64,000 nucleotides of DNA from Streptosporangiaceae bacterium (lineage in GTDB: Bacteria; Actinomycetota; Actinomycetes; Streptosporangiales; Streptosporangiaceae), in NCBI GenBank assembly GCA_036375995.1, contig DASVBE010000095.1, forward strand, positions 6,245 to 70,244. The letters are read 5' to 3'. The notes under the pieces are model-generated. The model was given only the letters and a program-made list of their open reading frames with translations. It made no database searches and was not told where the DNA came from. Positions within the stretch are counted from its first letter, which is position 1. Each line of letters opens with the position of its first letter. The position numbers were made by a program, and so were the translations under genes. Shown in pieces: positions 2,677 through 22,700 of the stretch.

Positions 2677-3615
2677 TCACAGAGCCCGGAACGCGCCGGC
2701 CGCGCGGGCCAGGAGCAGGTAGATGGCCATGATGACGATCGGGATCAGCGCCATCGCGGCCCCGAACGGCACGTTGTTGGCGATGCCCACGCTCTGCTCG
2801 ATGACGTTGCCCATGAAGTTCGACCCGGACCCGCCGATCAGGATCGGGGTGATGAAGTCGCCCAGCGTCAGCGAGAACGTGAAGATCGACCCGGCCACCA
2901 CCCCGGGCAGGATCAGCGGCAGGATCACCAGCCGGGTGGTCCGCCAGGTCCGCGCGCCGAGGTCCTGCGAGGCCTCGATCTGCGACGGCGGGATGCGCTC
3001 CAGCGCCGCGTAGATCGGCACGACCATGAACGGCAGCCACACGTAGCAGAACACGATGAACACGGCCGGGTTGGAGTAGATCAGGCTGACCGGGCCGACG
3101 CCCACCTTGCCCAGCGACCAGTTGAGCAGCCCGTCGTGGGTGAAGATCAGCAGCCAGGCGTAGACCTTGGCCAGGTAACTGGCCCACAGCGGGAGCAGGA
3201 TCGCCACGTACAGGAACGTCCGGGTGGGCCGGCTGGCGATCCTGGCCATGTAGTAGGCGAACGGCAGCGCGATGATCGCGTCCACGATCGTCACCCCGGC
3301 GGCCATCCCGACCGTGCGCAGCACGATGTCCCGGTAGGCCGCGGTCTGGAAGATCAGCGTGAAGTTGTTGAGGTTCCAGACCTGCTCGATGTTCGAGGTG
3401 AACGCGTTGATCCGCCAGAACGCGGTGATCAGCAGCACGACCAGCGCGGCCAGGTAGATCAGCACGAACCAGGCCAGCGCCGGGGTGAGCAGCAGCGATG
3501 CCCGGGCCCACGGCCGGCGCCACAGCACCGCCGAGACCCGGGGCCAGCGCCCGGCCAGATCCTGGCCGGGCGCCCCGCCCTCGGCGGCCGGGCCCGCGCC
3601 TTGCGCAGCGGTCAC
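2677..3615 (-). CDS. ABC transporter permease (PotB/PotH-like)
   Basis: Multi-TM ORF with EAA-loop-like IEASQDLGARTWRTTRLVILPLILPG. GTG at 3615 lies 2 nt after the binding-protein stop. The longer track ORF to 3654 overlaps the upstream gene and was not used. Confidence 0.8.
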   Translation of the reverse strand: MTAAQGAGPAAEGGAPGQDLAGRWPRVSAVLWRRPWARASLLLTPALAWFVLIYLAALVVLLITAFWRINAFTSNIEQVWNLNNFTLIFQTAAYRDIVLRTVGMAAGVTIVDAIIALPFAYYMARIASRPTRTFLYVAILLPLWASYLAKVYAWLLIFTHDGLLNWSLGKVGVGPVSLIYSNPAVFIVFCYVWLPFMVVPIYAALERIPPSQIEASQDLGARTWRTTRLVILPLILPGVVAGSIFTFSLTLGDFITPILIGGSGSNFMGNVIEQSVGIANNVPFGAAMALIPIVIMAIYLLLARAAGAFRAL

Positions 3616-3617
3616 GG

Positions 3618-4859
3618 CTACCCGGTGACCTGGGTGGTCCAGGCCTGCTGCCACTCCGCGTACGGTACGCAGTTCTGCTGGCCGTTATCGCAGGTGGCGA
3701 CCGGGGTCTTCCACAGCGAGATCGAGTCGAAGTAGCTCTGCGGCGCGTTCGCGTGGTACAGCTCGCATGACCCGGCCTGGATCTTGTTCATGAACGGGCA
3801 GGCCAGCTTGTTGTCCGGGGTCTCCCCGTAGTTGACCGCCTGCTGGGCCTGCACCTTGGGAGTGCTGATGTAGCGCATCCACAGGTACGCGCAGTTCGGG
3901 TGCGGGGCCTTGGCGGCCAGCATCCAGGAGTCCGCCCAGCCGGTCGCGCCCTCGGACGGGACCACCGACCCGATCGGGAACTTGGCGTCGGTCAGCGCGC
4001 TGACCTGGTACGGCCAGCCCGCGCCGAGCGTCACGTCGCCGTTCTTGAACGCCGAGATCTCCTGCGAGGCCAGGCCCCAGTACTTCTTGATCAGCGGGCG
4101 CTGGTCGGCCAGCAGCTTGACCGCGGCCTGGAACTGCGGCTGGGTCAGCTCGTACGGGTCGGTGATCTTCAGCGACGGGTCGTGGGTCTTCAGGTACAGC
4201 GCCGCGTCGGCGATCTGGATCGGGTTGTCCGGCACCGTGACCTGGCCCTTGTACTTCGAGTCGTACAGCACGCTCCACGACGTCGGCGCGGTCGTGAAGG
4301 CCTTCTTGCTGTACATCAGCACGTTCGGGCCCCACTGCAGGGAGACCCCGTAGTGCACGCCGTTGACGGTGTTGAAGGCCGGCGCCTGGAAGGCCGGGAA
4401 GAAGTCCTTGACCTCGGGGATCAGGCTCATGTTCACCGGGTGCGCGTCGCCCGCGTAGATGATCCGCAGGTCCGCGTCGCCGGACGAGGAGACCATGTCG
4501 TACTGGCCGTTGCCGCCGTTCTTCATCAGCGTGACCATCTGGTCCGAGGTGCCCGCGTAGGTGGCGTGCACCTGGCAGTCGGACTGCTGCTCGAATGGCT
4601 TGACCCACTGCGGCTCGAGGTAGCCCTCCCAGGCGATCAGGTTGAGCGTGCCCTCGCCCTGGCCGATCTTCTGCAGCACCGGCAGGTTCGCGGTCGGCAC
4701 CTGCGGCGCCCCTCCGCCGCTGGCCGCACTGCTCCCGCCGCCGGCCGCCGGGGGCGCGGCGCCGCCGCTGCTGCCGCAGGCCGCCGCCAGCAGACCCGCT
4801 GCGGCCACAACCAGTGCGCTCCGCGCCGCGCGGGAAAATGTCCCCATCCCAGGCATCAT
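3618..4859 (-). CDS. ABC transporter substrate-binding lipoprotein (PotD/PotF-like)
   Basis: 413-aa ORF. Signal peptide with lipobox ...VVAAAGLLAAAC-GSSGG. Periplasmic-binding-protein-like body. First gene after the ATPase in a 4-gene co-directional operon. Confidence 0.8.
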   Translation of the reverse strand: MMPGMGTFSRAARSALVVAAAGLLAAACGSSGGAAPPAAGGGSSAASGGGAPQVPTANLPVLQKIGQGEGTLNLIAWEGYLEPQWVKPFEQQSDCQVHATYAGTSDQMVTLMKNGGNGQYDMVSSSGDADLRIIYAGDAHPVNMSLIPEVKDFFPAFQAPAFNTVNGVHYGVSLQWGPNVLMYSKKAFTTAPTSWSVLYDSKYKGQVTVPDNPIQIADAALYLKTHDPSLKITDPYELTQPQFQAAVKLLADQRPLIKKYWGLASQEISAFKNGDVTLGAGWPYQVSALTDAKFPIGSVVPSEGATGWADSWMLAAKAPHPNCAYLWMRYISTPKVQAQQAVNYGETPDNKLACPFMNKIQAGSCELYHANAPQSYFDSISLWKTPVATCDNGQQNCVPYAEWQQAWTTQVTG

Positions 4860-9536: not shown

Positions 9537-10175
9537 ATGACCGACACCAACGGCGCCCGGGCGCCGCTTCCCGACGTTGACGTGCTGTTCTTCGACGGCT
9601 TCGACGAGCTCGACTCGATTGGCCCGTGGGAGGTGCTGTCCGCAGCCGGATTCCCGGTCCGGGCTGCGGGCCTCCCCGGCGAGGCCGGCACCGTGCGCGC
9701 CTCGAACGGGCTGCGGGTGGCGGTCGACGGCCTGCTCGGCGACGCCCCGGGCCTGGTGGTCGTGCCGGGCGGCGGCTACTGGGACCCGGGCGCCGGGGTG
9801 CGCCAGCAGATCGCCGACGGCGCGCTGCCCGCCCGGCTGGCCGCGCTGCACGCCGCGGGCACCGTGCTGGCCTCGGTGTGCACGGGCGCGATGCTGCTGT
9901 CCGCCGCGGGCCTGCTCAAGGACCGCCCGGTGGTCACCAACAAGCTGGCCCTCGGCCTGCTGGCCCGCGACGGCGCGCAGGTCCGCCAGGAGGCCAGGGT
10001 GGTCGACGACGGCGACATCATCACCGCGGGCGGCCCGATGGCCGGCATCGACCTGGCCGTGCGCATCGTAGAGCGCTACCTGGGCCCGGACGCGGCGCTG
10101 GCGGCGGCGGGCCGCCTCGAGCACGAGCAGCGCGGCCCGGTCCTCGTCACCGCCCGCGCCCGGGCCGCCGTTTAG
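9537..10175 (+). CDS. DJ-1/PfpI family protein
   Basis: ...VDVLFFDGFDELDSIGPWEVL... and the nucleophile-elbow motif ...LASVCTGAMLLSAAGLL... ATG at 9537. Divergent from the GlxA-type regulator. Confidence 0.8.
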   Translation: MTDTNGARAPLPDVDVLFFDGFDELDSIGPWEVLSAAGFPVRAAGLPGEAGTVRASNGLRVAVDGLLGDAPGLVVVPGGGYWDPGAGVRQQIADGALPARLAALHAAGTVLASVCTGAMLLSAAGLLKDRPVVTNKLALGLLARDGAQVRQEARVVDDGDIITAGGPMAGIDLAVRIVERYLGPDAALAAAGRLEHEQRGPVLVTARARAAV

Positions 10176-10753
10176 CGGCGGGTGAGCTTCCAGGCGGCCG
10201 GGAGCAGGGCCGCCGCGATGGCGGCCTTGATGGCGTCGCCGATGAGGAACGGCGTGAGGCCCAGGGAGATCGTCTCGGCCGGGCCGGTATGCAGGTCGAT
10301 GGCCAGCCAGGTCAGGCCGAACGCGTACAGGGCCACCTCGCCGGCGAGCATGGCCGGGACGGAGGTCCGCAGACGGCGGTCGGCCCGGCGCTCGGCCAGG
10401 AAGCCGCACAGCGCGGCGCAGACCACGAAGCCGACGATGTAACCGAACGACGCGCTGGCGTAGCCGCTGGAGTGCCCGGCGAACCAGGGCACCCCGGCCA
10501 CCCCGGCCAGCGTGTAGACCAGCATCGCGGCGGTGCCGCGCAGCCAGCCGAGCGCGGTGCCGGACAGCAGGACGGCCAGGGTCTGGCCGGTCACCGGGAC
10601 CGGCGTGAACGACAGGTGGAACGAAACCTGCGCCAGCAGACCGGTCAGCCCGGCCGCGCCGGCCACCAGCAGGACGTCGCGGACCAGAGCGCCGGGCAGC
10701 AGATCGGCCAGAACCAGGGGATGGTGCCCCGGCCGGGCGGTCACGTCAGACAC
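10172..10753 (-). CDS. bioY: Biotin transporter BioY
   Basis: ...FTPVPVTGQTLAVLLSGTALG...GYIVGFVVCA...PFLIGDAIKAAIAA... GTG at 10753 preceded by GGAGGA (10767..10762). The TAA stop overlaps the convergent TAG of the DJ-1 gene. Confidence 0.85.
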   Translation of the reverse strand: MSDVTARPGHHPLVLADLLPGALVRDVLLVAGAAGLTGLLAQVSFHLSFTPVPVTGQTLAVLLSGTALGWLRGTAAMLVYTLAGVAGVPWFAGHSSGYASASFGYIVGFVVCAALCGFLAERRADRRLRTSVPAMLAGEVALYAFGLTWLAIDLHTGPAETISLGLTPFLIGDAIKAAIAAALLPAAWKLTRR

Positions 10754-10856
10754 GAACGAGTTCCTCCGTACGGACGGGTCGGCAACGGTGACGCGGGCCG
10801 GGCCGGCCGGCCCGGCAAGAGTACAGAACCGGCCCGGCCCGCGGGAGAATCGGGTT

Positions 10857-11324
10857 ATGGATGTCGCGGACACCTTCGGGTTCCTGCTCGGGGCCTGGCG
10901 GGTGAGCCGGTCGATCGAGGACCGGCTGGCGGGGATGACCGGGTCCTTCGAGGGGTCAGCGCTGCTGGTGATCCCGCCGGAGTGGCAGGCCCGCGGCGTG
11001 TGGGCGCGCTACGACGAGACCGGCACCCTGCAGTTCGGCGGCCACAGCGGCCCGGCCAGCCGGACGCTGGGCTACATGCGGCGCTACGACGGCACGGTGG
11101 CGGTGTTCTTCCCCGACGGCCGCCCCTACATCGACCTCGACCTGCGGACCGGGTCCTGCGAACGGGACCACCCGTGCCGCGAGGACACGTACCACCTCAC
11201 GTTCACCGTCCGCTCCCTAGACGAATTCGAAGAACACTGGGAAGTCCAGGGCCCGGACAAGAACTACAGCGCCATAACCACCCTCCGCCGCGAACCCCCC
11301 GACCCCCAAGGTCTGACACCATGA
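10857..11324 (+). CDS. Conserved hypothetical protein (DUF6314-like by recollection)
   Basis: ATG at 10857 (MDVADTFGFLLGAWRVSRSIEDRLAG...). ...LQFGGHSGPASRTLGY...FFPDGRPYIDLDLRTG...HPCREDTY... resembles that family. The upstream part of track ORF 10533.. lies antisense to bioY and was not used. Confidence 0.6.
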   Translation: MDVADTFGFLLGAWRVSRSIEDRLAGMTGSFEGSALLVIPPEWQARGVWARYDETGTLQFGGHSGPASRTLGYMRRYDGTVAVFFPDGRPYIDLDLRTGSCERDHPCREDTYHLTFTVRSLDEFEEHWEVQGPDKNYSAITTLRREPPDPQGLTP

Positions 11325-11582
11325 TCAACAGCGCCGCCAGGTGGAAGCCTGGTCGACGCCCCTGCGGACCCGGACCGACCGGTTGATCAACTCACGCAGC
11401 ACATCCTGGTCCACATCATCGAGGCGCTTGCGGTACAGGCAGCCCTTTCCGGTCTTGTGCGGGCCCAGCACGGGCCACTCAAACCACGGCCCGCAACCCG
11501 TGCCGTGGGGGTCCGGGGGCTCGGGCCCCCGGGAAAGCACCGCGGCCCACCCGGAAGGTGCCCAAAGGGCACCGACCAGCAT
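11325..11582 (-). pseudogene. Possible C-terminal remnant of a DUF1801 (YdhG-like) gene abutting the ssrA 3' end
   Basis: Only the last ~35 aa (...PHKTGKGCLYRKRLDDVDQDVLRELINRSV...) resemble the DUF1801 C-terminus. The N-terminal 45 aa are low-complexity, and the ORF runs up to 12 nt from the tmRNA gene. Confidence 0.3.
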
Positions 11583-11593
11583 GGGCCGGCTCG

Positions 11594-11967
11594 TGGAGGT
11601 GGCGGGAATCGAACCCGCGTCCTTCGGTACTTCACCAGGGCTTCTCCGGGCGCAGCCTGCACTAGCTTTTCTCAGCCCCGGCGTTCACGCAGGCAAGTCG
11701 CCGACGGGCTCAGTCACTGTTTGGTGTCCTGCCTAGCCCCGTGACCGGGCTGGACAGTTGATCCTCCTAGCTGATGCCAGGCTCCGGGCCGGAGGAACTC
11801 CCGGGCTGACAGACTTCCTACCTAGCGGTTATCAGGCCGCGAGGCGGACGTCAGTGCGCGTTACATTGGCACTTGAATTTTGCGGTCACGGGATTAACGA
11901 GGGCACAACCGCAACCCTCGGCCCGCTTCCCCTGGATCGACTACCGAAGTCGAAACCGATCACCCCC
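11594..11967 (-). ncRNA. ssrA: tmRNA (ssrA)
   Basis: The minus strand starts GGGGGTGATCGGTTTCGACTTCGGTAGTCGATCCAGGGGAAGCGGGCCGAGG and ends ...GCGGGTTCGATTCCCGCCACCTCCA. The acceptor stem GGGGGUG/CACCUCC contains the G3:U alanine identity pair, and there is a T-arm GGTTCGATTCC. The tag reading frame is GCC AAT GTA ACG CGC ACT GAC GTC CGC CTC GCG GCC TGA TAA (ANVTRTDVRLAA). CCA is not encoded. smpB lies upstream on the same strand. Confidence 0.93.
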
Positions 11968-12065
11968 TATGGAGTTGTACCGGCGGGAACGACTGCCGGA
12001 GCAGGCGACACCGCCATGATCGACGTTACCCGATCCTGACCCCGGCAGCTAATCCAGAATCTGGG

Positions 12066-15000
12066 CTACGAAGCAGCCGGCAGGTTCTCCAGGAACGCCC
12101 GGGCCACCGGCGCGGCCGACGAGCTCGCCGACTTCGTCAGCTCCAGCACCGCGAACGCCACCCCGCCGCGGTACCCGACGAACCACGCCGCGCGCAGGCC
12201 ATGGTGCCTGGGACCCAGCCCCACGTTGCCGACCTGCCCGAAGACCGCCTGACCGCGCACGTTGGCGGACCGCGCCGCCCCGCTGGTCACCGTCTGCCGC
12301 ATCAGCGACCGCAGCGACGTCAGCACCGCGGCGGAGAACGGGCGGTTCGGGCCGGGCCCCGGCGACGGCGGGTTGGTCACCAGGACCGGGTGGTGCCAGC
12401 TCCCGGACTGCACCACGCCGGCCATCAGGGCCATCTGCAGCGGGCTGAGCGTCACCCGGCCCGCCCCGATCGTGTCCGCGGCCAGCTGCGGGACGCTGCC
12501 TGGCGTGGGCGCCGACCCGGCGCTGGCCGGGACCGGCAGCTGCCAGGGTGCCCCGATGCCGAAGTTCTTCGCCGCGCTGGTCAGCTGGGCGCTGGTCAGC
12601 CGGAGCGACAGGGTGGCGAACGCGGTCGAGCAGCCCGCGGCGAAGTCCGTGCTGAACGCCGGCTCGGGGCCGAGCCCCCGCTGCCTCGGATGGTTGGTGA
12701 AGGTCCGCCCGCCGACCTCGCTCGTGGCCATGCACGGGATCCGCGCGTTGACGTTGAAGCCGTCGCTGATCAGCGCGGCCGTGGAGACCAGGCTGAAGGC
12801 CTGGCCCGGCCGGTAGGCCCCATTCAGCGGGCTGACCTCGGGCATCCGGTGCCCCCGGTGGGTCGCCACCGCGAGGATCCGGCCGGTCGAGGGGTCGATG
12901 GCGACCAGCGCCACGGAGCCGTGCAGCGACTTGACCGCCTGGGTGGCGGCGTCCTGCACGCCCGGGTCGATGGTGGTCCGGACCGGCTGCCCCGCGTGAC
13001 CGGACCAGCGGGCCAGCACGGACATCTGGCGGCCGGCCGCGTTCTCCGCCACCACGCTGGTCGACGGCATGCCGACCAGCGTGCGCTGGAAGGCCTGCTG
13101 CAGGCCGGACAGGCCGACCGTGGCGCCCGGCTGGTAGGAAACCCCGTTGTTGCGGAGCACAGTCGCGGTCTCGGTGCCGACCCGCCCCACCACCGAACTG
13201 GCCGTGCTGTCGAACAACCGCAGCATGGCCCGCTTGATCTGCAGGCCGGGCACCTTCCTGAGCTGATGGCGCAGCCGGTGATACGCGTGCGGCGTGAACC
13301 TGGCCAGCTCGAAGAACTGCTTGGACGGCGCGGCCAGGATGTCGCCGTAGACCTCGTTGACGTCCAGGCCGGTCACGGCGGCGAGCGCGGCCGCGGTCCG
13401 GTACGGGCTCTCCAGGCTGGTGGGCATGACCCCGGCGACGAACACCCGGGTCCGCTTGGCCAGCGGCCGGCCGGCCGCATCGAGCAGCGGGGCCCGCCGC
13501 GGGGTCGTGGTGACCACGGCCAGCCGGTATCCGGGCTTCAGCGCGGGGTTGATCACGCTCGGGCTCCACACGACCTTCCACGTCGAGTGGATCCGGCGCA
13601 GCGTGAACACGCCTTCGTAGCGCCACGGCGCGCCACTGCGACCCAGGTCGATCGCGGCGTGGAAGTGCGCCTCGCCGACGTCACCGTGCCGGGTGATGTG
13701 GCCCATCTGCAGGGTGATGTCGGCCGCGTCGAGCTGCCGGTAGGCGGTCCGCAACTGGCTGGTGACCGCGTCCGGGATACCCGTGGTGTACGTGGCCGCC
13801 TCGTGGTAGTGGCCTTCCTCCCAGGCGAGCAGGAAGGCCTGCACGGTCGGCTCGACGGACGGATCCGGCGTGCTCGCCGTCACCAGCAGGTAGCCCAGCA
13901 GCCCGGCCAGCACGACGATGATGACCGCCTTCTTCGGTGTCACCCGCGGCCGCTTGACGGCGGGCCGGCCCGTCGTGGCGGGCTTCTTCGCCGGCGGCGC
14001 CCCCGGTGGCCGGCCGCCAGCCGGCCCAGGCGGTGCAGTTGGTCCAGGCGGCGCAGCCGGCCCGGACGGCGCAGTTGGCCCGGACGGCGCAGCCGGCGGG
14101 GCAGACGGCCCGCCCGGCGCGACGGGCGTCCTGGCCGGGGCCGCAGGCGGCGCGGCGGGCGCCAGCGCGGACAGCCCGGGGCCGGCCACGAGCTTGTCGC
14201 CGACCGGATGACCGGGTCGAGGGCTGACTTCCGGCGGCGCCACTGAGTTTGACCGGGTTACGGTTGGCGGCCCGCTGATCGGCATCCCGGGCGGGATCTG
14301 GCTGATCGGCGGCTGCGCCGTCAGGGACCAGTCGCCCTGCGTGATCGCCCCGGTCAGCGGACTGGCCTGCGGCTGGCCCACCGCCGGGGCCCGCGGGTCC
14401 GGTCCGGCCCCGGCCACGCCGCCCGCCCCCAGGTCATCAGCCCCCAGGTCATCAGCCCGCAACGGACCCGCAGCGGCCCGGCGCACAAAGCCCTGGCGGC
14501 CCAGATCCTGACCGGCCGCAGCCGGGCGCGGATCGCCCGGGCCCGCCGGGCCCGGCTCAGGCACAGACGGGCGCACGCCACCCCGGCTGGCCGGGTCCTG
14601 ACCAGGTGCGGCCGGGCGCACACCGCCCGGGCCCGCCAGGCCGGGCTCAGACCCAGACGGGCGCACACCACGCCGGCTGGCCGGGTCCTGACCAGGTGCG
14701 GCCGAACGCACACCACCCGGGCCCGCCAGGCCGGGCTCAGACCCAGACGGGCGCACACCACCCCGGCTGGCCGGGTCCTGACCAGGTGCGGCCGGGCGCA
14801 CACCGGCCGGGCTAGCCGGGTTCTGCCCGGCAGCACGCCCACTTCGCTCAGGCCGCCCGGCCGCGCTCCCGGCAGACCGCCCCGAGGGGGGCAGCTGCGG
14901 CGACAGGCTGGCCGGGGACCGCGGGGCCGCCGGCGGCCGGCCGGGCGGTGGCGCAGTCCAGCTGGACGGCACCGACGGCGGCGTGCTCGTGCGTGGCCGG

Positions 15001-16025
15001 GCCGGCTCAAACGGCCCGCGCATGGCGTCATCCGCCAGCGGCGCTTCCTCCGCCGGCGATGACTCCCCCGCCAGCGGCAGCGCCCCAGCGGCAGGCACCG
15101 GGCCCCAGCCAGATGACCGCCCGGCCGGCGTCCCCGGCTCGGTCGCGGCCGATTGCCCCGGACCTGGCTGGCCAGCTCGGGGCGGGACCGACAGCGACGG
15201 GTCCCAGCCAGCAGGCGAGGCGGACGCAGACGCCGCCCCAGCGCCCGGCCGCCCAGAACCTGGCTCCCCAGACCCTGGCCGGCCAGCCCGCGGCGGCACC
15301 GACAGCGACGGGTCCCAGCCAGCAGCCGAGGCCGACGCAGACGCCGCCCCAGCACCCGGCCGCCCAGAACCTGGCTGGCCGGATCGCGGCGGGACCGACG
15401 GCGGTGGGTCGGCGGGCGGCGGGGCGGGCCAGGCGGAGGGGCTGCGGGCGGGCTGCCCGGCGGGTGGCGTGGTGGCCTGCGGAGCCTGGCTGGGGGTCGG
15501 CTGGGCCGGGCCGGAAGGTTCGGGGAACCACGGGGTGGGCTGCGGCGGGAGCCAGGCGCGCGGGGTAGTGGCTCGGGTGCTGCCGAAGGCGGCGGGCGGG
15601 CCGTCGTGATCATCACCGCCGAGCGGCGGCTGGACCGTGTCGTTGCCCAGCGCGCCGGGGCCAGCCAGGCCGTTCCCCGGCCGCCCGGGCCCATCCAGGC
15701 CGTGCCCGTCCAGACCGTGCTCAGCCGAACCGTGCTCAGCCGAACCGTGCCCGGCCGCCCCGTGGCCCGAGCCATTCGGGTGCGGGCTGGTGACGGCCCA
15801 GCCGGGCGGCCGCGTGCCAGGCGCTGTGCTGCCAGGCGCTGTGCTGCCAGTCCCCGTGCTGCCCGCCGCCGTGCTGCCTGGCCCTGTGCTGCCTGGCCCT
15901 GTGCCGCCGGAGGCCGGGCCAGCGGGGGAATTCGCGGCAGGCGGAGTCTCCGCCCCGTCCTGGTCAGGGCGGGCCGGCCGGACCGGCGCGGCGTGTGAGC
16001 CGCGCTTACGCATGCGCGCCATCAC
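12066..16025 (-). CDS. PBP-fold membrane protein (NTF2-like MecA_N + class-B transpeptidase fold) with substituted catalytic motifs and ~700-aa Pro-rich repeat N-terminus
   Basis: Single uninterrupted 1319-codon ORF that starts (GTG 16025 / ATG 16022) 11 nt after the smpB stop. TM helix AVIIVVLAGLLGYLLVTAS at about residue 700. ...PTVQAFLLAWEEGHYHEAA... (MecA_N-like) and ...VALVAIDPSTGRILAVATH... (transpeptidase fold). The catalytic boxes read PGQAFS, GCSTAF and GQVGNV. The true start within the low-complexity region is uncertain. Confidence 0.75.
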   Translation of the reverse strand: MMARMRKRGSHAAPVRPARPDQDGAETPPAANSPAGPASGGTGPGSTGPGSTAAGSTGTGSTAPGSTAPGTRPPGWAVTSPHPNGSGHGAAGHGSAEHGSAEHGLDGHGLDGPGRPGNGLAGPGALGNDTVQPPLGGDDHDGPPAAFGSTRATTPRAWLPPQPTPWFPEPSGPAQPTPSQAPQATTPPAGQPARSPSAWPAPPPADPPPSVPPRSGQPGSGRPGAGAASASASAAGWDPSLSVPPRAGRPGSGEPGSGRPGAGAASASASPAGWDPSLSVPPRAGQPGPGQSAATEPGTPAGRSSGWGPVPAAGALPLAGESSPAEEAPLADDAMRGPFEPARPRTSTPPSVPSSWTAPPPGRPPAAPRSPASLSPQLPPSGRSAGSAAGRPERSGRAAGQNPASPAGVRPAAPGQDPASRGGVRPSGSEPGLAGPGGVRSAAPGQDPASRRGVRPSGSEPGLAGPGGVRPAAPGQDPASRGGVRPSVPEPGPAGPGDPRPAAAGQDLGRQGFVRRAAAGPLRADDLGADDLGAGGVAGAGPDPRAPAVGQPQASPLTGAITQGDWSLTAQPPISQIPPGMPISGPPTVTRSNSVAPPEVSPRPGHPVGDKLVAGPGLSALAPAAPPAAPARTPVAPGGPSAPPAAPSGPTAPSGPAAPPGPTAPPGPAGGRPPGAPPAKKPATTGRPAVKRPRVTPKKAVIIVVLAGLLGYLLVTASTPDPSVEPTVQAFLLAWEEGHYHEAATYTTGIPDAVTSQLRTAYRQLDAADITLQMGHITRHGDVGEAHFHAAIDLGRSGAPWRYEGVFTLRRIHSTWKVVWSPSVINPALKPGYRLAVVTTTPRRAPLLDAAGRPLAKRTRVFVAGVMPTSLESPYRTAAALAAVTGLDVNEVYGDILAAPSKQFFELARFTPHAYHRLRHQLRKVPGLQIKRAMLRLFDSTASSVVGRVGTETATVLRNNGVSYQPGATVGLSGLQQAFQRTLVGMPSTSVVAENAAGRQMSVLARWSGHAGQPVRTTIDPGVQDAATQAVKSLHGSVALVAIDPSTGRILAVATHRGHRMPEVSPLNGAYRPGQAFSLVSTAALISDGFNVNARIPCMATSEVGGRTFTNHPRQRGLGPEPAFSTDFAAGCSTAFATLSLRLTSAQLTSAAKNFGIGAPWQLPVPASAGSAPTPGSVPQLAADTIGAGRVTLSPLQMALMAGVVQSGSWHHPVLVTNPPSPGPGPNRPFSAAVLTSLRSLMRQTVTSGAARSANVRGQAVFGQVGNVGLGPRHHGLRAAWFVGYRGGVAFAVLELTKSASSSAAPVARAFLENLPAAS
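14536..14805. repeat. 3 x 90-bp tandem repeat inside the PBP-like gene (30-aa unit GVR.AAPGQDPASR.GVRPSGSEPGLAGPG)
   Basis: Units at 14536..14625, 14626..14715 and 14716..14805 differ by a few substitutions. They are in frame with the ORF. Confidence 0.9.
15181..15410. repeat. ~2.2 copies of a 96-111-bp tandem repeat inside the PBP-like gene (unit ...ASASASAAGWDPSLSVPPRAGRPGSG...)
   Basis: 15181..15291 and 15292..15387 are near-identical apart from a 15-bp indel. A partial third unit follows. Confidence 0.8.
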
Positions 16026-16036
16026 TCGCCACTGGT

Positions 16037-16501
16037 CTACCTACGCCGCCGCAACGCACGGTCAACCTCCCTGGCCGCGTCCCGCGCCGCGAGGTCATGA
16101 CGTTTGTCGTAGGACCTCTTGCCGCGGGCGAGCGCCAACTCGACCTTGGCCTTGCCGTCCTTGAAGTACAGGGCCAACGGAACCAGCGTCAGGCCACGCT
16201 CGGCGGTCTGGCTGGCGAGCTTGTCGATTTCCCTACGGTGCATCAGCAGCTTACGTGTGCGGCGCGGCTCATGGTTGGTCCACGTGCCCTGCGTGTACTC
16301 CGGGATGTGCACGTTGTGGAGCCATACCTCATGGTCGGATATCTGCCCGAAGCCATCGGTGAGCGACGCGCGCCCGGCACGCAGTGATTTCACCTCGGTC
16401 CCGGTCAGCACCAGGCCAGCCTCGTAGACCTCTTCGATGTGGTAGTCGTGCCTGGCGCGCCGGTTCCTGGCAATCATTTTCAGGCCCTGATCGGCTGCCA
16501 C
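16037..16501 (-). CDS. smpB: SsrA-binding protein SmpB
   Basis: ...[34 protein letters not shown]...[29 protein letters not shown]... Canonical position after ftsX. Confidence 0.95.
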
Positions 16502-16523
16502 GGTTCTCCTGTCCGCTGGGCGG

Positions 16524-17438
16524 TCACGCCCGCAGGTAGCGGCGGAGCGTCAGGAGCGACGTGGCGCCGGTCAGCACCACGCCGATGATCATCGCGAGAA
16601 CGATGACCTCGACCAGGTCGGTGGCGCTCAGCTGGACGTTGAAGGGGAAGTACTGCTGCAGCGTATCGAGCCAGAGCGACTTGACCCCAATCAGCAGCCC
16701 GGCCGCGACCAGCCAGCCGAACAGCCCCGCGATGATCCCCTCGACCAGGAAGGGCAGCTGAACGTAGAAGTTCGAGGCGCCGACCAGGCGCATGATGCTG
16801 GTCTCCCGGCGCCGGTTGAAGGCCGACAGCCGGATCGTGTTGGCGACCAGCAGGATCGCCGCGATGATCAGGATGATGGCGATAATCACCACGGCGTTCC
16901 TGGCGCCGTTGAGCAGCTTGTAGAACTTGTCCAGGATCGACGAGTCGTCCACGACCTGGTCCACCCCGTCGCGGCCGTCCACGGTCTGCGCCACGACCGG
17001 GAAGTCCGTCTGCGTGTTCCTGAGCTTGACCTGGAACGAGTCCGGGATGTCGCCCTTGGACACGGAGTTGACGAACGACTGGTTCTGCGAGAACTCCTGG
17101 CGGAACCGGGAGTACGCCTCTTCCTGCGACTCGTATCTGACGCTGACCACCTGCGGCTTCAGCTTCTTCAGGTCGGCCAGGATCTGGGCCCGCTCGGCGG
17201 CGGTGGCCGCGCCGTTGTGCTCGCACTGCGGGCTGACGCTGGACCTGGTGCAGAGGTAGATCGACAGCTGAACCCGGCCCTGCCAGTAGGTCCTGGTGTT
17301 GTCCACCTGCTTGACGAACAGCAGGCCGGTGCCGAGCAGGGACAGGCTGATCGCGACGACCACGACCAACGCGATCGTCATGGTCAGGTTCCGCCTCAGG
17401 CCAATCCAGACCTCATGGAAGACGAACTGCGCACGCAT
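16524..17438 (-). CDS. ftsX: Cell division permease-like protein FtsX
   Basis: 304 aa. N-terminal TM, a large extracytoplasmic loop and three C-terminal TMs (...[26 protein letters not shown]...). Follows ftsE. Confidence 0.93.
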
Positions 17439-17476
17439 GTGACGATCCTTCGGTAGTTCCCTCGCCGGGTCCCCGG

Positions 17477-18166
17477 TCAGTAAGCCTGACCGTAGACCCC
17501 TCGGGACTGGTCGCGGACGACCTTGCCGTACTCGAGCTCGATGACCCGCTTGCGCATGGAGTCGACGATCGCGGCGTCGTGCGTGGCCATGACGACGGTC
17601 GTGCCGGTGCGGTTGATGCGGTCGAGGACCTTCATGATGCCGATCGAGGTGGCCGGGTCGATGTTCCCGGTGGGCTCGTCGGCGAGCAGGATCATCGGGC
17701 GGTTGACGAACGCCCGGGCCATGGCGACCCGCTGCTGCTCGCCGCCGGACAGCTCGTCGGGCATCCGGTCGCGCTTGCCCTCCAGGCCGACCAGGTCGAT
17801 GACCTCCGGCACGACCTTGCGGATGAACCGCCGGGGCTTGCCGATGACCTCGAGGGCGAACGCGATGTTCTGGTAGACGTTCTTGTTCGGCAGCAGCCGG
17901 AAGTCCTGGAACACGCAGCCGATCCGGCGCCGCAGGTGCGGCACCTTCCAGTTCGTGAGCCGGGCGAGGTCCTTCCCGGCCACATGAATCCGGCCGCCGG
18001 TGGGCCGCTCCTCCTTCAGCACCAGCCGGAGGAAGGTCGACTTGCCCGACCCCGACGGGCCAACCAGGAAGACGAACTCGCCCTTCTCGACGTCAAGGTT
18101 GACGTTCTCGAGGGCAGGCCGGTTCTGGTTGGGGTACGTCTTAGTGACGTTGTCGAAGTGGATCAC
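17477..18166 (-). CDS. ftsE: Cell division ATP-binding protein FtsE
   Basis: Walker [10 protein letters not shown], signature [14 protein letters not shown], Walker [13 protein letters not shown]. 229 aa. Confidence 0.95.
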
Positions 18167-18318
18167 AGGCCCATCGCAGCGCTCGACGATAGTGCGGAGG
18201 CGTCCCGGAGCCGCAGCATCCCGGTTTGGCCTCGGGCCAGTCTAGGGGGAAACTGGTCAGGAGGACCCAACATCGGCGAAGTGAACCCCGGCCGGGACAC
18301 CGGCCAGAGGGGACCAAG

Positions 18319-18498
18319 ATGAGCTGCGAACATCTCATCTGCGCGGCGTGCGCCGGACCTGTGGCAGAAGGTAATTGCCCGGTCTGCCAGGCCGCACGGG
18401 CAAATGTCCACCACCACGGCAGCGCGCTGCGGATGCCGCTGATTGTCGTCACGCTGGCCGCGCTGCTGATCTTGCTCGCCATGCACCTGGCCCAGTAA
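18319..18498 (+). CDS. Small zinc-ribbon-like protein with C-terminal TM anchor
   Basis: ATG at 18319 preceded by AGAGGGGA. MSCEHLICAACAGPVAEGNCPVCQAA... (CxxC...CxxC) followed by the hydrophobic tail PLIVVTLAALLILLAMHLAQ. The upstream 31 codons of the track ORF were not used. Confidence 0.5.
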   Translation: MSCEHLICAACAGPVAEGNCPVCQAARANVHHHGSALRMPLIVVTLAALLILLAMHLAQ

Positions 18499-18534
18499 GG
18501 CCGGGGGTCACGGCCAGGGGCAGCGCCCCGGGGG

Positions 18535-19638
18535 TTACGAACCCTGCTGGCGCAGCCAGCGGATCTCGGCATCGATGAACTCATCGATCTCGCCGTCCAT
18601 CACCGCCGCCGTGTTACCGGTTTCCACCCCGGTCCGCACGTCCTTGATGTTCTGGTAGGGGTGCAGTACGTAGTTGCGGATCTGGGTGCCCCAGCTCGTG
18701 GTGGTCGCACCGCGCAGCTCGGCCATCTTGGCCGCCTGCTCCTCGCGTTTGCGCTCCAGCAGCTTGGCCTGCAGCACCGTCATCGCGCTGGCCCGGTTCT
18801 GGATCTGGCTGCGCTCGTTCTGGCAGGACACCACGATCCCGCTCGGCAGGTGGGTGATCCGCACCGCCGAGTCGGTGGTGTTCACGCCCTGGCCGCCGGG
18901 ACCGCTGGACCGGTACACGTCGACCCGCAGCTCGTCGTCCGGGATGTCGATGTGGTCGGCCCGCTGCACCACCGGGATCACGTCCACGCCCGCGAACGAG
19001 GTCTGGCGGCGGCCCTGGTTGTCGTACTTGGAGATCCGCACCATCCGGTGCGTGCCGTGCTCGCCGCGCAGCGTGCCGTAGGCGTACGGGGCCTTGACCG
19101 CGAACGTGGTGGACTTGATCCCGGCTTCTTCCGCGTAGGAGGTGTCGTAGACCTCGGTCGGGTAGCCGTGCCGCTCGGCCCAGCGCAGGTAGATGCGCTG
19201 CAGGCCCTCCGCCCAGTCGGCCGCGTCGGCCCCGCCGGCCTGCGCGTTGATGGTGATCAGGGCCTCCCGCGAGTCGTACTCGCCGGACATCAGCGTCCTG
19301 ATCTCCAGCTGGTCCATCTCCTTGCGCAGCGCGGCCAGGTCCCGCTCGGCCTCGGCCCGGGCGGCCTCGTCGTTCTCGCTGTCGGACAGCTCGAACATGA
19401 TCATCGTGTCGTCGAGCCGCTGCCGCAGGCTGGCCAGCCGGGACAGCTCGCTGTCCAGGTAGGACAGCCGCCGGGTGACCGCCTGACCCTGCTCCTGGTC
19501 CTCCCACAGGGCCGGATCGGCGGCGCGTTCGCGCAGCGCGTCGGCTTCCTTGCTCATCGCGCTCGGGTCGAGCACAGCTTCCACACTGGAGAGTTTCGCC
19601 GTCAGTTCGGCGATCTCGCCGGCGGGGTCGGTGGCCAT
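18535..19638 (-). CDS. prfB: Peptide chain release factor 2 (single ORF, no frameshift site) with variant SKY tripeptide
   Basis: 367 aa. GGQ loop [22 protein letters not shown]. ...[24 protein letters not shown]... C-terminus ...[22 protein letters not shown]... Canonical neighbourhood with ftsE/ftsX/smpB. Confidence 0.93.
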
Positions 19639-19769
19639 GGCGGAAGCCTACGTCAGAAGAGGGGGTCAGATTTCCATACTGGTGTGGCACAAGTGACTCA
19701 GCTGGACACCGTGCCTACCTGGGCGGGCCACCGGGCCGGCCGCCGTGACCAGCCCGGGGCCTGCCGTGG

Positions 19770-22700
19770 TCAGTCGGGCAGCCGGCTGGCGCTGACCAGG
19801 GTGCGGATCGCCCGCACCGCCACCGACAGCATGGCCACGGTGAACACGTCGCTCTCCCAGATCTCGGTCAGCGTCTGGCCGGCCCGGATCACCGCCGACT
19901 CGTTCCGCCGGGCCCAGGCCAGCAGCCGCTGCTCCGGGGTGCCGCCCGAGCCGGTCACCATCAGCACGTCCTTGGCCAGCGCGGCGTGCGAGGCGTACAG
20001 ATCGTCGCGCAGCGCCCCGCGGGCCATCGTGCTCCACCGGTCGTCCCTGGGCAGCGCGGTGATCCGGTCCCGGAGCCGGCCGATCTGCAGCCGGTCGGAC
20101 AGGTCGAAGTAGACCTCCGCGGCCTCCTCCACCGGCCGCTTGGCCGACCTGGCCACCTGGACGATGTCGAACGCCGAGTAGCCGGGCACCATCGCCGAGA
20201 CCCGGTCGGCTAGGTCGTCGGGCACGCCCTTGGCGGTCAGCGCGAGGCGCCGCTCCTCGAACCCGGTCACGTCGCGGCCGGCCAGCAGCTTGGGCACGTT
20301 GGCCGCGACCGCGGCCATGCCGTCGGCGAAGAAGTCGACCGTGGGCTGGATGCCGAACGGCGGGCGGCGGTTGGCCAGCAGCCACCGGACCGCTCGCTCG
20401 GTCAGCTTCCGGCCCTCGAGCAGCATCTGGATCTGCACGGTCGTGTCGACCTGGCCGTCCAGGGCCTCGACCTGGGCCCAGAAGTCCGGCATCTGGTACA
20501 CGTCCCTGGCCACCAGCCAGGCCCGGGTGATGTCCGGGACGGACGCCCCGGTCTCCTCGGTCTGCCGGAACAGCGACGAGATACCGGACCGGTCGATCAT
20601 GTCGTTGACCACCGCGGTGGTGATGATCTCCCGGTGCAGCCGGTGCGGCGGCATCAGGTCGGCGAACCGCTCCCGCATCGGCTCCGGGAAGTAGCTGGTC
20701 AGCACCCGGCGCAGGTAGGGGTCGTCGGGCACGTTGGAGGCCAGCACGTCCTGCGCGGTGGCGATCTTGGTGTGCGCGAGCAGCACGGAGAACTCGGGCA
20801 CGGTCAGGCCCGCCCCGGCCGACCGGCGCTCGGCCAGCTCCCGGTCGCCGGGCAGCACGTCCAGCCGCCGGTGCACCCGCCGGTCCCGCTCCAGCTTCCT
20901 GATGTACCTGGCGTGCACGTGCAGCATCGACGGGGCCTGCGCGCGGGCCAGCGCCAGCGTCCGGTTCTGCTGGTAGTTGTGCGCCAGCACGAGCGCGGCG
21001 ACCTCGTCGGTCATCTCGTGCAGCAGCCGGCTCCGGTCGGCCGCGGACAGGTCGCCCGCGTCCATCGCGGCGGCCAGCACGATCTTCATGTTGACCTCGT
21101 GGTCGGAGGTGTCCACCCCGGCCGAGTTGTCGATGAAGTCGGTGTTGACCAGCCCGCCGGCCAGCGCGTACTCGATCCTGGCCTCCTGGGTCAGGCCCAG
21201 GTTGCCGCCCTCCCCGACCACCCGGGCGCGCAGCGCGATGGCGTCGATCCTGACGCTGTCGTTGGACCGGTCCCCCACGTCCGCGTGGCTCTGGGTGCTG
21301 GCCTTCACGTAGGTGCCGATGCCGCCGTTCCACAGCAGGTCGACCGGCGCCGCCAGGATCGCCGAGACCAGCTGGTCCGGGGTCAGCGAGGAGGCGTCGC
21401 TGTCCAGCCCGAGCACCGCAGCGACCTGCGGGGTCAGCCGGACCGACTTGGCGGTGCGCGGCCACACCCCGCCGCCCGCCGAGATCAGCGCCGGGTCGTA
21501 GTCCGCCCACGACGACCGGGGCAGCGCGAACAGCCGGGCCCGCTCGGCGAAGCTGACCGCCGGGTCGGGGTCCGGGTCGATGAACACGTGCCGGTGGTCG
21601 AACGCGGCGATCAGCCTGATGTGCTCGGACCGCAGCATGCCGTTGCCGAACACGTCGCCGGACATGTCGCCGACGCCCACCACGGTGAAGTCGTGCGCCG
21701 CGGTGTCCAGGCCCAGGGTCTGGAAGCCGAACTTCACCGACTCCCACGCCCCGCGCGCGGTGATGCCCATCTTCTTGTGGTCGTAGCCATCCGAGCCGCC
21801 GGACGCGAACGCGTCGCCGAGCCAGAACCCGTAGCCCGTGGCGATCTCGTTGGCGGTGTCGGAGAACGTGGCCGTGCCCTTGTCCGCGGCCACCACCAGG
21901 TACGGGTCATCGCCGTCGTGCCTGGCCACCCGCGGGGGCGGCACCACCTTCCCGGCGGACAGGTTGTCGGTGATGTCCAGCATGGCCGAGATGAACATCT
22001 TGTAGCAGGTCAGCACCTCGGCGCCGACCGCGTCGCGATCCGGTGAGGCGGGCAGCTGCTTGCACACGAAGCCGCCCTTGGCGCCGGACGGCACGATGAC
22101 CGAGTTCTTGACCTCCTGCGCCTTGGCCAGCCCGAGGACCTCGGTGCGGAAGTCCTCCGGCCGCTCGGACCAGCGCAGCCCGCCCCGCGCCACGTGCGCG
22201 AACCGCAGGTGCACGCCCTCGAACCGGGGCGAGTAGACGAACAGCTCGAAGCGCGGCCGGGGCGCGGGCAGGTCGGGCACCTCGGCCGGGTCCAGCTTGA
22301 CCGCGAAGTAGGGCAGGCCCGCGCCGGGCTCCGGCTCCTCCTGGAAGTAGTTGGTCCGCAGCGTGGCGCGGATCAGCGCCCAGACCGCCCGCAGGATCCG
22401 GTCCTGGTCCAGGCTGGCCACCTCGTCGAGCTCGCCGCTGATCTCCTCGGCGATGGCCTCGCTCCGCTCGGACTGCCCGGGCTTCCGGTCCGGGTCGAAC
22501 CGGGACTCGAACAGCGTGACCAGCAGCCGCGTCACGGTCACGTTGGACCGCAGCACCCGGGCGATGTAGTTCTGGCTGAACGAGGTGCCCGCCTGCCGCA
22601 GATACCGGGCGTAACCGCGCAGGACCACCACCTGACGCCAGGTCAGCGCGGCGTCCAGAACCAGCGCGTTGAAGTCGTCGTCCTCGGTCCGGCCGCGCCA

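Follow-up and report, generated by a model that had tools for sequence, protein, structure and literature searches.

A catalytically dead class B penicillin-binding protein encoded beside smpB in a Streptosporangiaceae genome: a putative pseudoenzyme family with an inherited locus and, here, a greatly lengthened N-terminal arm

Penicillin-binding proteins (PBPs) are defined by their catalytic serine. Among the class B enzymes (bPBPs), Enterococcus faecium PBP5, Staphylococcus aureus PBP2a (MecA) and Bacillus subtilis PBP3 (PbpC) carry an NTF2-like MecA_N domain, a PBP_dimer domain (the pedestal) and a transpeptidase domain behind an N-terminal anchor; all three are active, can be acylated by beta-lactams through their SxxK, SxN and KTG boxes, and have short cytoplasmic tails. 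The gene that is the theme of the present account, found in a stretch of 64,000 nucleotides of a Streptosporangiaceae bacterium (assembly GCA_036375995.1, contig DASVBE010000095.1, positions 6,245 to 70,244; hereafter the window), encodes a protein with the same order of domains, but with all three boxes replaced and with an arm of about 695 residues ahead of its membrane helix. It lies between smpB and ssrA, the gene for transfer-messenger RNA (tmRNA), and was first noticed in a preliminary description of the window as a probable pseudoenzyme; the coordinates given there for the open reading frame (ORF), the motifs and the gaps to its neighbours (11 nt after smpB, 98 nt before ssrA, all co-directional) proved exact throughout.

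PBP-lipo (MAB_3167c/Rv2864c type) is the one actinobacterial protein of this broad type for which we found functional work, a mycobacterial class B PBP described as a lipoprotein (the anchor being hypothetical) that serves septal peptidoglycan synthesis, and whose catalytically dead S364A variant does not complement in Mycobacterium abscessus (PMC9170245). As an actinobacterial lipoprotein of class B, PBP-lipo is like the nearest active relatives of the window protein and like a sister clade of inactive ones, all of which have a lipobox. The window protein differs from it in having a transmembrane (TM) helix after a 699-residue arm instead of a lipobox, and in lacking the catalytic serine that PBP-lipo needs. 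The closest active relatives, at 35-40% identity, are proteins from metagenome-assembled genomes (MAGs) of uncultured Streptosporangiales and Frankiaceae (P0455, P0484, P0498), themselves uncharacterised, which share the domain order and the position near smpB but keep PGSTFK, SCNTAF and GKTGTAE intact and have a lipobox in place of the TM helix and tail. Nor does it match sensors of the BlaR1/MecR1 type, which combine an acylatable serine in a PBP-like extracellular sensor with a zinc protease in the cytoplasm: the nucleophilic serine is absent from the window protein and its cytoplasmic part is of low complexity, with no Pfam domain.

The loss of the catalytic residues is the central observation. 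A profile search of 1.84 billion representative sequences returned 1193 proteins at E<1e-30, and in an alignment of the best 150 the intact forms PGSTFK, SCNTAF and GKTGTA appear in relatives from about E 1e-150 downwards, in the very columns where the window protein has PGQAFS, GCSTAF and GQVGNV (Table 1). The register, read by eye in the preliminary description, is thereby confirmed. In a second alignment, of 125 sequences, 135 columns reach 90% conservation or more in the active clade, and 90 of these are kept in the TM-anchored clade to which the window protein belongs, while every catalytic position is changed, in that protein and in its clade alike. The replacements are themselves conserved within the TM clade (Q1075 at 0.97, V1265 at 0.93, Q1264 and G1266 both at 1.0), and this near-invariance hints that the old cleft is still constrained. 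Because all three boxes are replaced in register, canonical acyl-enzyme chemistry appears excluded for the window protein; because the nucleophilic serine is missing, covalent binding of beta-lactams, by which PBPs are operationally defined, is predicted to be negative. Two cysteines, C1098 and C1132 (region of about 12730..12732 and 12628..12632), do not vary in the active clade or in either inactive clade, the second being the middle residue of the former S-C-N box, and they may form a structural disulfide kept through the loss of catalysis.

The fold itself is preserved. All three Pfam domains score above their gathering thresholds, and an AlphaFold2 model built from 125 diverse relatives has a mean predicted local distance difference test score (pLDDT) of 92.9 and a predicted template modelling score of 0.88; an earlier run with 40 close homologues had given a pLDDT of 54, with less than 50 in the transpeptidase core, and was set aside as an artefact of a shallow alignment. 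Foldseek matches the model over its full length to E. faecium PBP5, PBP2a and B. subtilis PBP3 (E about 1e-35, TM-score 0.6-0.7, 16-20% identity), and the best match by sequence in the PDB is again E. faecium PBP5 (E 4.6e-17), in an alignment that stops just short of the SxxK region. An N-terminal membrane anchor followed by PBP_dimer and the penicilloyl-serine transferase fold marks the protein as a class B PBP, and the NTF2-like domain ahead of the pedestal places it in the MecA_N subgroup, in line with the assignment made in the preliminary description. It belongs to none of the named NCBIfam equivalogs searched (pbp2_mrdA, PBP4(5)_Efaec, MecA, SpoVD, FtsI), all of which score far under their cut-offs, the best being TIGR03423 (pbp2_mrdA) with 134.5 bits against a cut-off of 455, and PBP4_5_Efaec reaching 83.4 against 700. 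Basic residues flank the cytoplasmic side of TM helices under the positive-inside rule, and the topology of the single helix, which has its basic stretch on the N-terminal side, is inferred to be N-in.

Table 1. Features of the smpB-ssrA region in window coordinates, with residue numbers of the PBP-like protein.
Feature	Coordinates	Strand	Basis or remark
Whole ORF, catalytically dead class B PBP with long N-terminal arm	12066..16025	-	ORF reading
Cytoplasmic low-complexity arm (predicted), residues 1-699	13929..16025	-	P 22%, A 17%, G 17%, S 10% (66% together)
Conserved N-terminal peptide MARMRKRGSHAAP	15984..16022	-	Family consensus M.R...RG[AS]HA
GST(G/A)P pentapeptide repeats, about 6 copies	15816..15899	-	15-nt period; Tandem Repeats Finder (TRF)
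Unit of about 32-37 aa, two copies (SVPPR.G.PGSG...ASASA.GWDPSL)	15192..15398	-	Repeat reading
90-nt (30-aa) tandem repeat GVRPAAPGQDPASRGGVRPSGSEPGLAGPG, 3.4 copies	14506..14812	-	TRF, 90% matches; absent from L001
TM helix AVIIVVLAGLLGYLLVTA, residues 700-717	13875..13928	-	Single; KRPRVTPKK stretch on N-terminal side
MecA_N (NTF2-like), residues 725-832	13530..13853	-	PF05223, E 1.1e-7, 32.6 bits against cut-off 22; model pLDDT >85
PBP_dimer (pedestal), residues 840-1002	13020..13508	-	PF03717, E 5.2e-13
Transpeptidase fold, degenerate, residues 1039-1312	12090..12911	-	PF00905, E 4.7e-18
Former SxxK box, now Q1075-A-F-S1078 (PGQAFS)	12792..12803	-	Active relatives S-T-F-K (PGSTFK) in same columns; 1075 Ser to Gln, 1078 Lys to Ser (family majority Thr)
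Former SxN box, now G1131-C-S1133 (GCSTAF)	12627..12635	-	Active relatives S-C-N (SCNTAF) in same columns; 1131 Ser to Gly (family majority Ala), 1133 Asn to Ser
Former KTG box, now Q1264-V-G1266 (GQVGNV)	12228..12236	-	Active relatives K-T-G (GKTGTA) in same columns; 1264 Lys to Gln, 1265 Thr to Val
ssrA (tmRNA)	11591..11967	-	Rfam RF00023, 154.7 bits; 98 nt downstream of PBP-like gene
smpB	16037..16501	-	PF01668, E 8e-63; stop 16037-16039; 11-nt gap to PBP-like gene
ftsX	16524..17438	-	Backbone upstream of smpB
ftsE	17477..18166	-	Backbone upstream of smpB
prfB	18535..19638	-	Backbone upstream of smpB; prfB-ftsE-ftsX span 16524..19638

The position beside smpB is shared by the whole inactive family. 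In all 12 inactive loci examined (among them the window, L001-L007, Thermobispora L081, and Nonomuraea L082 and L088) the PBP-like gene follows smpB directly, with gaps of 3-19 nt in orthologous loci, and tmRNA lies downstream in every inactive locus scanned for RNA. Of the nearest active relatives we examined five, each with a lipobox and intact motifs: one (P0455, Streptosporangiales MAG) overlaps the smpB stop by 8 nt, a second (P0484, Frankiaceae MAG) comes directly after smpB, a third (P0498) is downstream of it with one ORF between, and two (P0467 and P0528) are located away from it. The three smpB-linked active loci scanned for RNA have ssrA downstream, with extra genes between the PBP gene and ssrA in P0455 and P0484. 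Since active relatives were thus already downstream of smpB, the position appears inherited and not a new insertion, and the earlier wording, by which the gene is an insertion between these two neighbours, gets its history wrong. Rv2864c, the Mycobacterium tuberculosis counterpart of PBP-lipo, is presumably not adjacent to smpB.

A neighbour-joining tree, built without support values, gathers all degenerate forms into one clade nested among active lipoprotein bPBPs, with partly degenerate forms at its base (for example P0291, with GSAFE, SCN and GKTGT), paraphyletic lipoprotein pseudo-forms, and a derived clade with TM helix and tail. The pseudoenzyme thus seems to descend from an active lipoprotein bPBP already encoded downstream of smpB, and we regard its identity and this history, taken jointly, as very well founded. 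Among the active relatives, seven proteins of about 1050-1067 residues (P0351, P0352, P0354, P0358, P0382, P0396, P0415) have an extension of about 400 residues past the transpeptidase domain. Downstream of the active smpB-linked PBP genes comes an Amidohydro_2 gene, immediately next in L084 and L086 and after one other gene in L083; some genomes of active relatives (L083-L086) have an S41 (PDZ) protease gene between ftsX and smpB, and L086 has a 236-codon ORF with no Pfam match (3294..4004) between smpB and the active PBP gene, overlapping both by a few bases. Loci of the inactive clade have neither the Amidohydro_2 gene nor the S41 protease gene.

Inactive relatives are numerous, in Streptosporangiaceae (most of the cultured genera) and in related uncultured actinomycetes, with many MAGs among their sources. 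In the 120 clusters nearest to the window protein, which have 53-95% identity and are mostly of metagenomic origin, PGQAF[TS] and [AG]C.TAF are found throughout, and GQVG in nearly all. Starting from the Acrocarpospora orthologue (38% identity), a second search recovered orthologues from at least 15 cultured genera of Streptosporangiaceae (Acrocarpospora, Herbidospora, Microbispora, Microtetraspora, Planotetraspora, Sphaerimonospora, Sphaerisporangium, Streptosporangium, Planomonospora, Planobispora, Nonomuraea, Sinosporangium, Spongiactinospora, Thermobispora and Thermostaphylospora), with no annotation more specific than "penicillin-binding transpeptidase domain-containing protein". These form the sister clade: lipoproteins of about 625 residues with an L(T/A)(A/G)C lipobox and no cytoplasmic part, whose boxes have degenerated differently, to G[TS]AFS, GCVTAL and GV(A/T)(A/S). 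In the folded part, G+C at third codon positions (GC3) is 0.92-1.0, and the ratio of nonsynonymous to synonymous substitution rates (dN/dS) against L001, a MAG whose folded domains are 95% identical, is 0.34. We take the family to be conserved and long maintained, and not in decay. Our search of the literature found no description of a catalytically dead or smpB-linked class B PBP family, in keeping with the remark in the preliminary description that no characterised homologue was known; Ogawara's review tabulates missing motifs for beta-lactamases, and searches of its text met no mention of this PBP family (PMC6273383). We regard the family as real, widespread and unstudied, with the expanded tail an unusual feature of this genome.

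That tail, described at the outset as some 700 Pro/Gly/Ala/Ser-rich residues with several repeat families, does match that account in the window. Besides the repeats listed in Table 1 there are GHG-type and PSGPTAP-like units, and the periods of the TRF arrays (15, 18, 30, 36, 45 and 90 nt) are multiples of three in 15 of 16 rows, the sole other row being a weak period-8 array with a score of 40. The arm is not, on the other hand, a trait of the family: the usual tail of TM-anchored relatives is about 58 residues, the sister clade has none, and with about 695 residues the window is an extreme (the longest other family members found have about 950 residues in total). About 240 residues of the arm, including the 30-residue array and part of the 37-residue duplication (15204..15355, 152 nt), have no counterpart in L001, and the expansion therefore appears recent, unless the repeats have collapsed in that MAG.

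Several features bear on whether the arm is made as protein. Its frame has no stop in 695 codons, an openness met in only 0.12% of shuffles, and the other five frames have 4-17 stops each; the interval from smpB to the TM helix is likewise a single open frame in L002, L003, L004 and L005, with arms of 323, 195, 81 and 357 residues. A basic peptide, MAR.R.RG[SA]HA, begins 3-30 nt past the smpB stop in seven loci (the window and L001-L006), in the variants MARIRRRGSHA(A/S) in L002, L003 and L005 and MARTHSRGAHAG in L004, and of the 65 arms with a gene call in the TM clade, 48 have the consensus M.RT..RGAHAG(K/R)P; no other protein of the window has the RG[AS]HA N-terminal motif. Given the open frame, the conserved peptide and repeat periods that are mostly multiples of three, translation of the arm, beginning a short way past smpB, is very probable, as had been supposed. 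The ORF has 1319 codons, the first GTG (16025) and the second ATG (16022), and because the conserved peptide begins at the latter, it is the likely start, which would give a protein of 1318 residues. A Trp motif, [SA].W[PDGT]P, recurs in the arm (15426..15443 and seven other Trp sites), and SPSAWP is found again in the otherwise unalignable arms of L002, L003 and L005, making it a candidate short linear motif.

How might such a protein work? The explanation that we prefer as a whole, with a probability of roughly 0.6, is a family of pseudo-bPBPs with an inherited locus that act by binding, as scaffold or sensor; for the binding or scaffold mechanism in particular our support is tentative and falls short of even odds. 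An active lipoprotein bPBP encoded beside smpB would first have lost catalysis; later, within the clade, the lipoprotein anchor would have been swapped for a TM helix and a cytoplasmic tail with a basic N-terminal peptide; and in this genome the tail would have been lengthened to about 695 residues by in-frame expansion of repeats. The window protein would no longer cross-link peptidoglycan and would act by binding. Outside the cell, the remodelled and conserved cleft, the NTF2-like and pedestal lobes, or both, might bind peptidoglycan or a protein of wall synthesis; inside, the N-terminal peptide, tethered flexibly by the disordered arm, may dock a partner in the cytoplasm. Co-expressed with smpB, the protein would serve cell-wall growth or division as a sensor or scaffold.

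Known systems offer partial precedents. Two PBP2a structures in which an allosteric site away from the active site is occupied by a peptidoglycan analogue or by muramic acid (3zg5, 3zfz) are among the best fold matches, and that allosteric site may serve as an analogy for binding without catalysis. For the cytoplasmic end, M.R(T)..RG[AS]HA is reminiscent, by analogy only, in position and charge, of the Arg-rich N-terminal mini-domains of Firmicute PBPs, SRxxR(R/K) and TRxxYR, that GpsB docks (PMC6335420). Membrane proximity matters for that docking (PMC6335420), whereas the motif of the present family lies 50-690 residues from the membrane. Actinobacteria are not known to have GpsB; they have DivIVA/Wag31.

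Other observations weigh against a binding role, or against parts of it. Binding of peptidoglycan or of a partner by any family member is, at present, purely conjectural, and the tree behind the proposed order of events has, as said, no support values. Since the sister clade has nothing in the cytoplasm, any core function must take place outside it, and the tail is an add-on; in the same clade the replacement of the KTG box is poorly conserved, which weakens the idea of a ligand cleft common to the family. The failure of PBP-lipo S364A to complement means that a scaffold role cannot be taken for granted in this lineage. The arm, for its part, has a GC3 of 0.68-0.92, under that of the folded part, and a relaxed dN/dS of 0.3-0.66, a value of limited weight as its reference, L001, is an error-prone MAG with frameshifts; and a GTG, a single codon ahead of the juxtamembrane segment, may permit a short isoform as a minor product.

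Among the other readings, the one suggested in the preliminary description, a dedicated partner of FtsEX, fares best, although we consider it unlikely. The dead ectodomain would contact the extracellular domain of FtsX or its hydrolase and so couple septal hydrolysis to synthesis, and the co-oriented placement downstream of ftsE-ftsX-smpB in the 12 inactive loci, together with the septal work of mycobacterial PBP-lipo, the closest characterised type (PMC9170245), is what speaks for it. The backbone prfB-ftsE-ftsX-smpB, however, is kept in all 14 related loci that reach far enough upstream, with or without a PBP-like gene, and it was on this backbone that the suggestion rested, which leaves the link unsupported. 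Moreover, two of the five active relatives sit elsewhere, smpB and in some genomes also the S41 protease gene or another ORF separate ftsX from the gene. A preprint on Mycobacterium leprae interactions mentions neither PBP-lipo nor FtsX.

Distinctly unlikely, in our estimate, is a role without cross-linking, as partner or activator of a SEDS (shape, elongation, division and sporulation) glycosyltransferase, RodA or FtsW, in which the TM helix and pedestal would be kept as the interface. SEDS polymerases are activated by the pedestals of bPBPs, and B. subtilis can do without the catalytic activity of PBP2B; in the present family the pedestal is kept and is modelled with confidence, and the clade of the window protein has a TM helix. 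The sister and basal members are nevertheless lipoproteins without such a helix, the neighbourhoods of the loci examined contain no SEDS gene, and we know of no MecA_N-type bPBP established as a SEDS partner.

Still less do we favour the view that the long arm is not protein at all, translation starting immediately ahead of the TM helix, with a repeat-rich spacer of 2.1 kb between smpB and that point, which we judge very unlikely. The juxtamembrane GTG and the lower GC3 of the arm fit such a start, several gene callers picked short forms for close relatives (P0001, for example, at 615 residues), and stop-free frames are common in DNA of 80% G+C. Yet only one of the six frames is free of stops here, the gap remains open in frame in L002-L005, the peptide past the smpB stop is conserved and the repeat periods keep the frame but for the one weak row; and L001, the source of short gene calls, is visibly frameshifted.

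An enzyme that retains some non-canonical chemistry in the old cleft, with another nucleophile or as a non-covalent hydrolase, is highly improbable: the strong conservation of the replacement residues in the TM clade and the frequent Thr or Ser at the nucleophile position of the lipoprotein clade (GTAFS, GSAFS) could be read in its favour, but both clades have lost the Lys that acts as general base, both residues of SxN, and the Lys and Thr of KTG, and a Gln in place of the nucleophile cannot take an acyl group. Decay into a pseudogene, or an artefact of assembly, suggested by the loss of every catalytic motif and by a repeat-rich arm open to mis-assembly (with about 240 residues of it missing from L001), is effectively refuted for the folded part by hundreds of clusters with intact full-length ORFs, a GC3 of about 0.96, and the dN/dS, model confidence and core conservation given above.

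A family that reaches across Streptosporangiaceae and their relatives, and that has kept the entire PBP fold under long purifying selection without any of the catalytic residues, argues for a second, non-enzymatic job of bPBPs in actinobacterial wall growth. The family provides a natural series at one inherited locus, from active enzyme through partly degenerate forms and dead lipoproteins to dead TM proteins with tails, and the question is open to experiment in genera that have been cultured, among them Thermobispora, Nonomuraea, Streptosporangium and Microbispora. A bolder extension, which we hold to be doubtful, would make the smpB-linked dead PBPs a new class of PBP-derived transmembrane regulators, whose ectodomain reads the state of peptidoglycan or holds a wall enzyme and whose TM clade has been wired to cytoplasmic machinery; candidate links through the Arg-rich docking peptide would be DivIVA/Wag31, FtsZ-associated proteins or Ser/Thr-kinase signalling, and an evolvable tether of about 50 to 695 residues would tune reach or promote clustering. 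For annotation, members of the family, which are named "penicillin-binding transpeptidase domain-containing protein" or "FtsI/PBP2", would be miscounted as beta-lactam targets. The tail also shows how fast repeats may expand in frame within a disordered region, with about 240 residues gained or lost between genomes whose folded domains are 95% identical.

As to the surroundings of the gene, smpB and the PBP-like gene are probably co-transcribed and translationally coupled; a scan of 11300..19800 for promoters and terminators found nothing above shuffled sequence, and the operon structure is therefore deduced from the sizes of the gaps. Adjacency is the only relation found to SmpB, tmRNA or ribosome-rescue factors, the domains of the PBP-like protein being extracytoplasmic cell-wall domains. 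Past ssrA lie genes for a DUF6314 protein, BioY, a DJ-1/AraC regulator and a LuxR regulator; an integrated island at ssrA was considered and rejected, as no integrase is found there and distant relatives have the same position. Within 10000..20000 the G+C content of the PBP-like gene is 71-82%, against 64-66% in smpB, ftsX and ftsE, a difference that stems from amino-acid composition, extreme in the arm; the GC3 of ftsX and ftsE, about 0.96, is similar to that of the folded part.

The ssrA region differs in L001, where a block of about 460 bp with ssrA and its upstream part is inverted relative to the PBP-like gene (window 11591..12053, L001 8162..8624), which could be a true rearrangement or a mis-assembly. 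Ahead of the inverted block L001 has 283 nt of a tandem repeat of about 60 nt that the window lacks, and the 276 nt after ssrA in the window (11315..11590) have no counterpart in L001. ARAGORN reported no tmRNA in the window, although the Rfam match is clear. The 3' end of ssrA reads ...CACCTCCACGA, with the terminal CCA apparently unencoded, likewise in L001, and by eye the tag frame of the tmRNA reads ANVTRTDVRLAA, followed by two stops.

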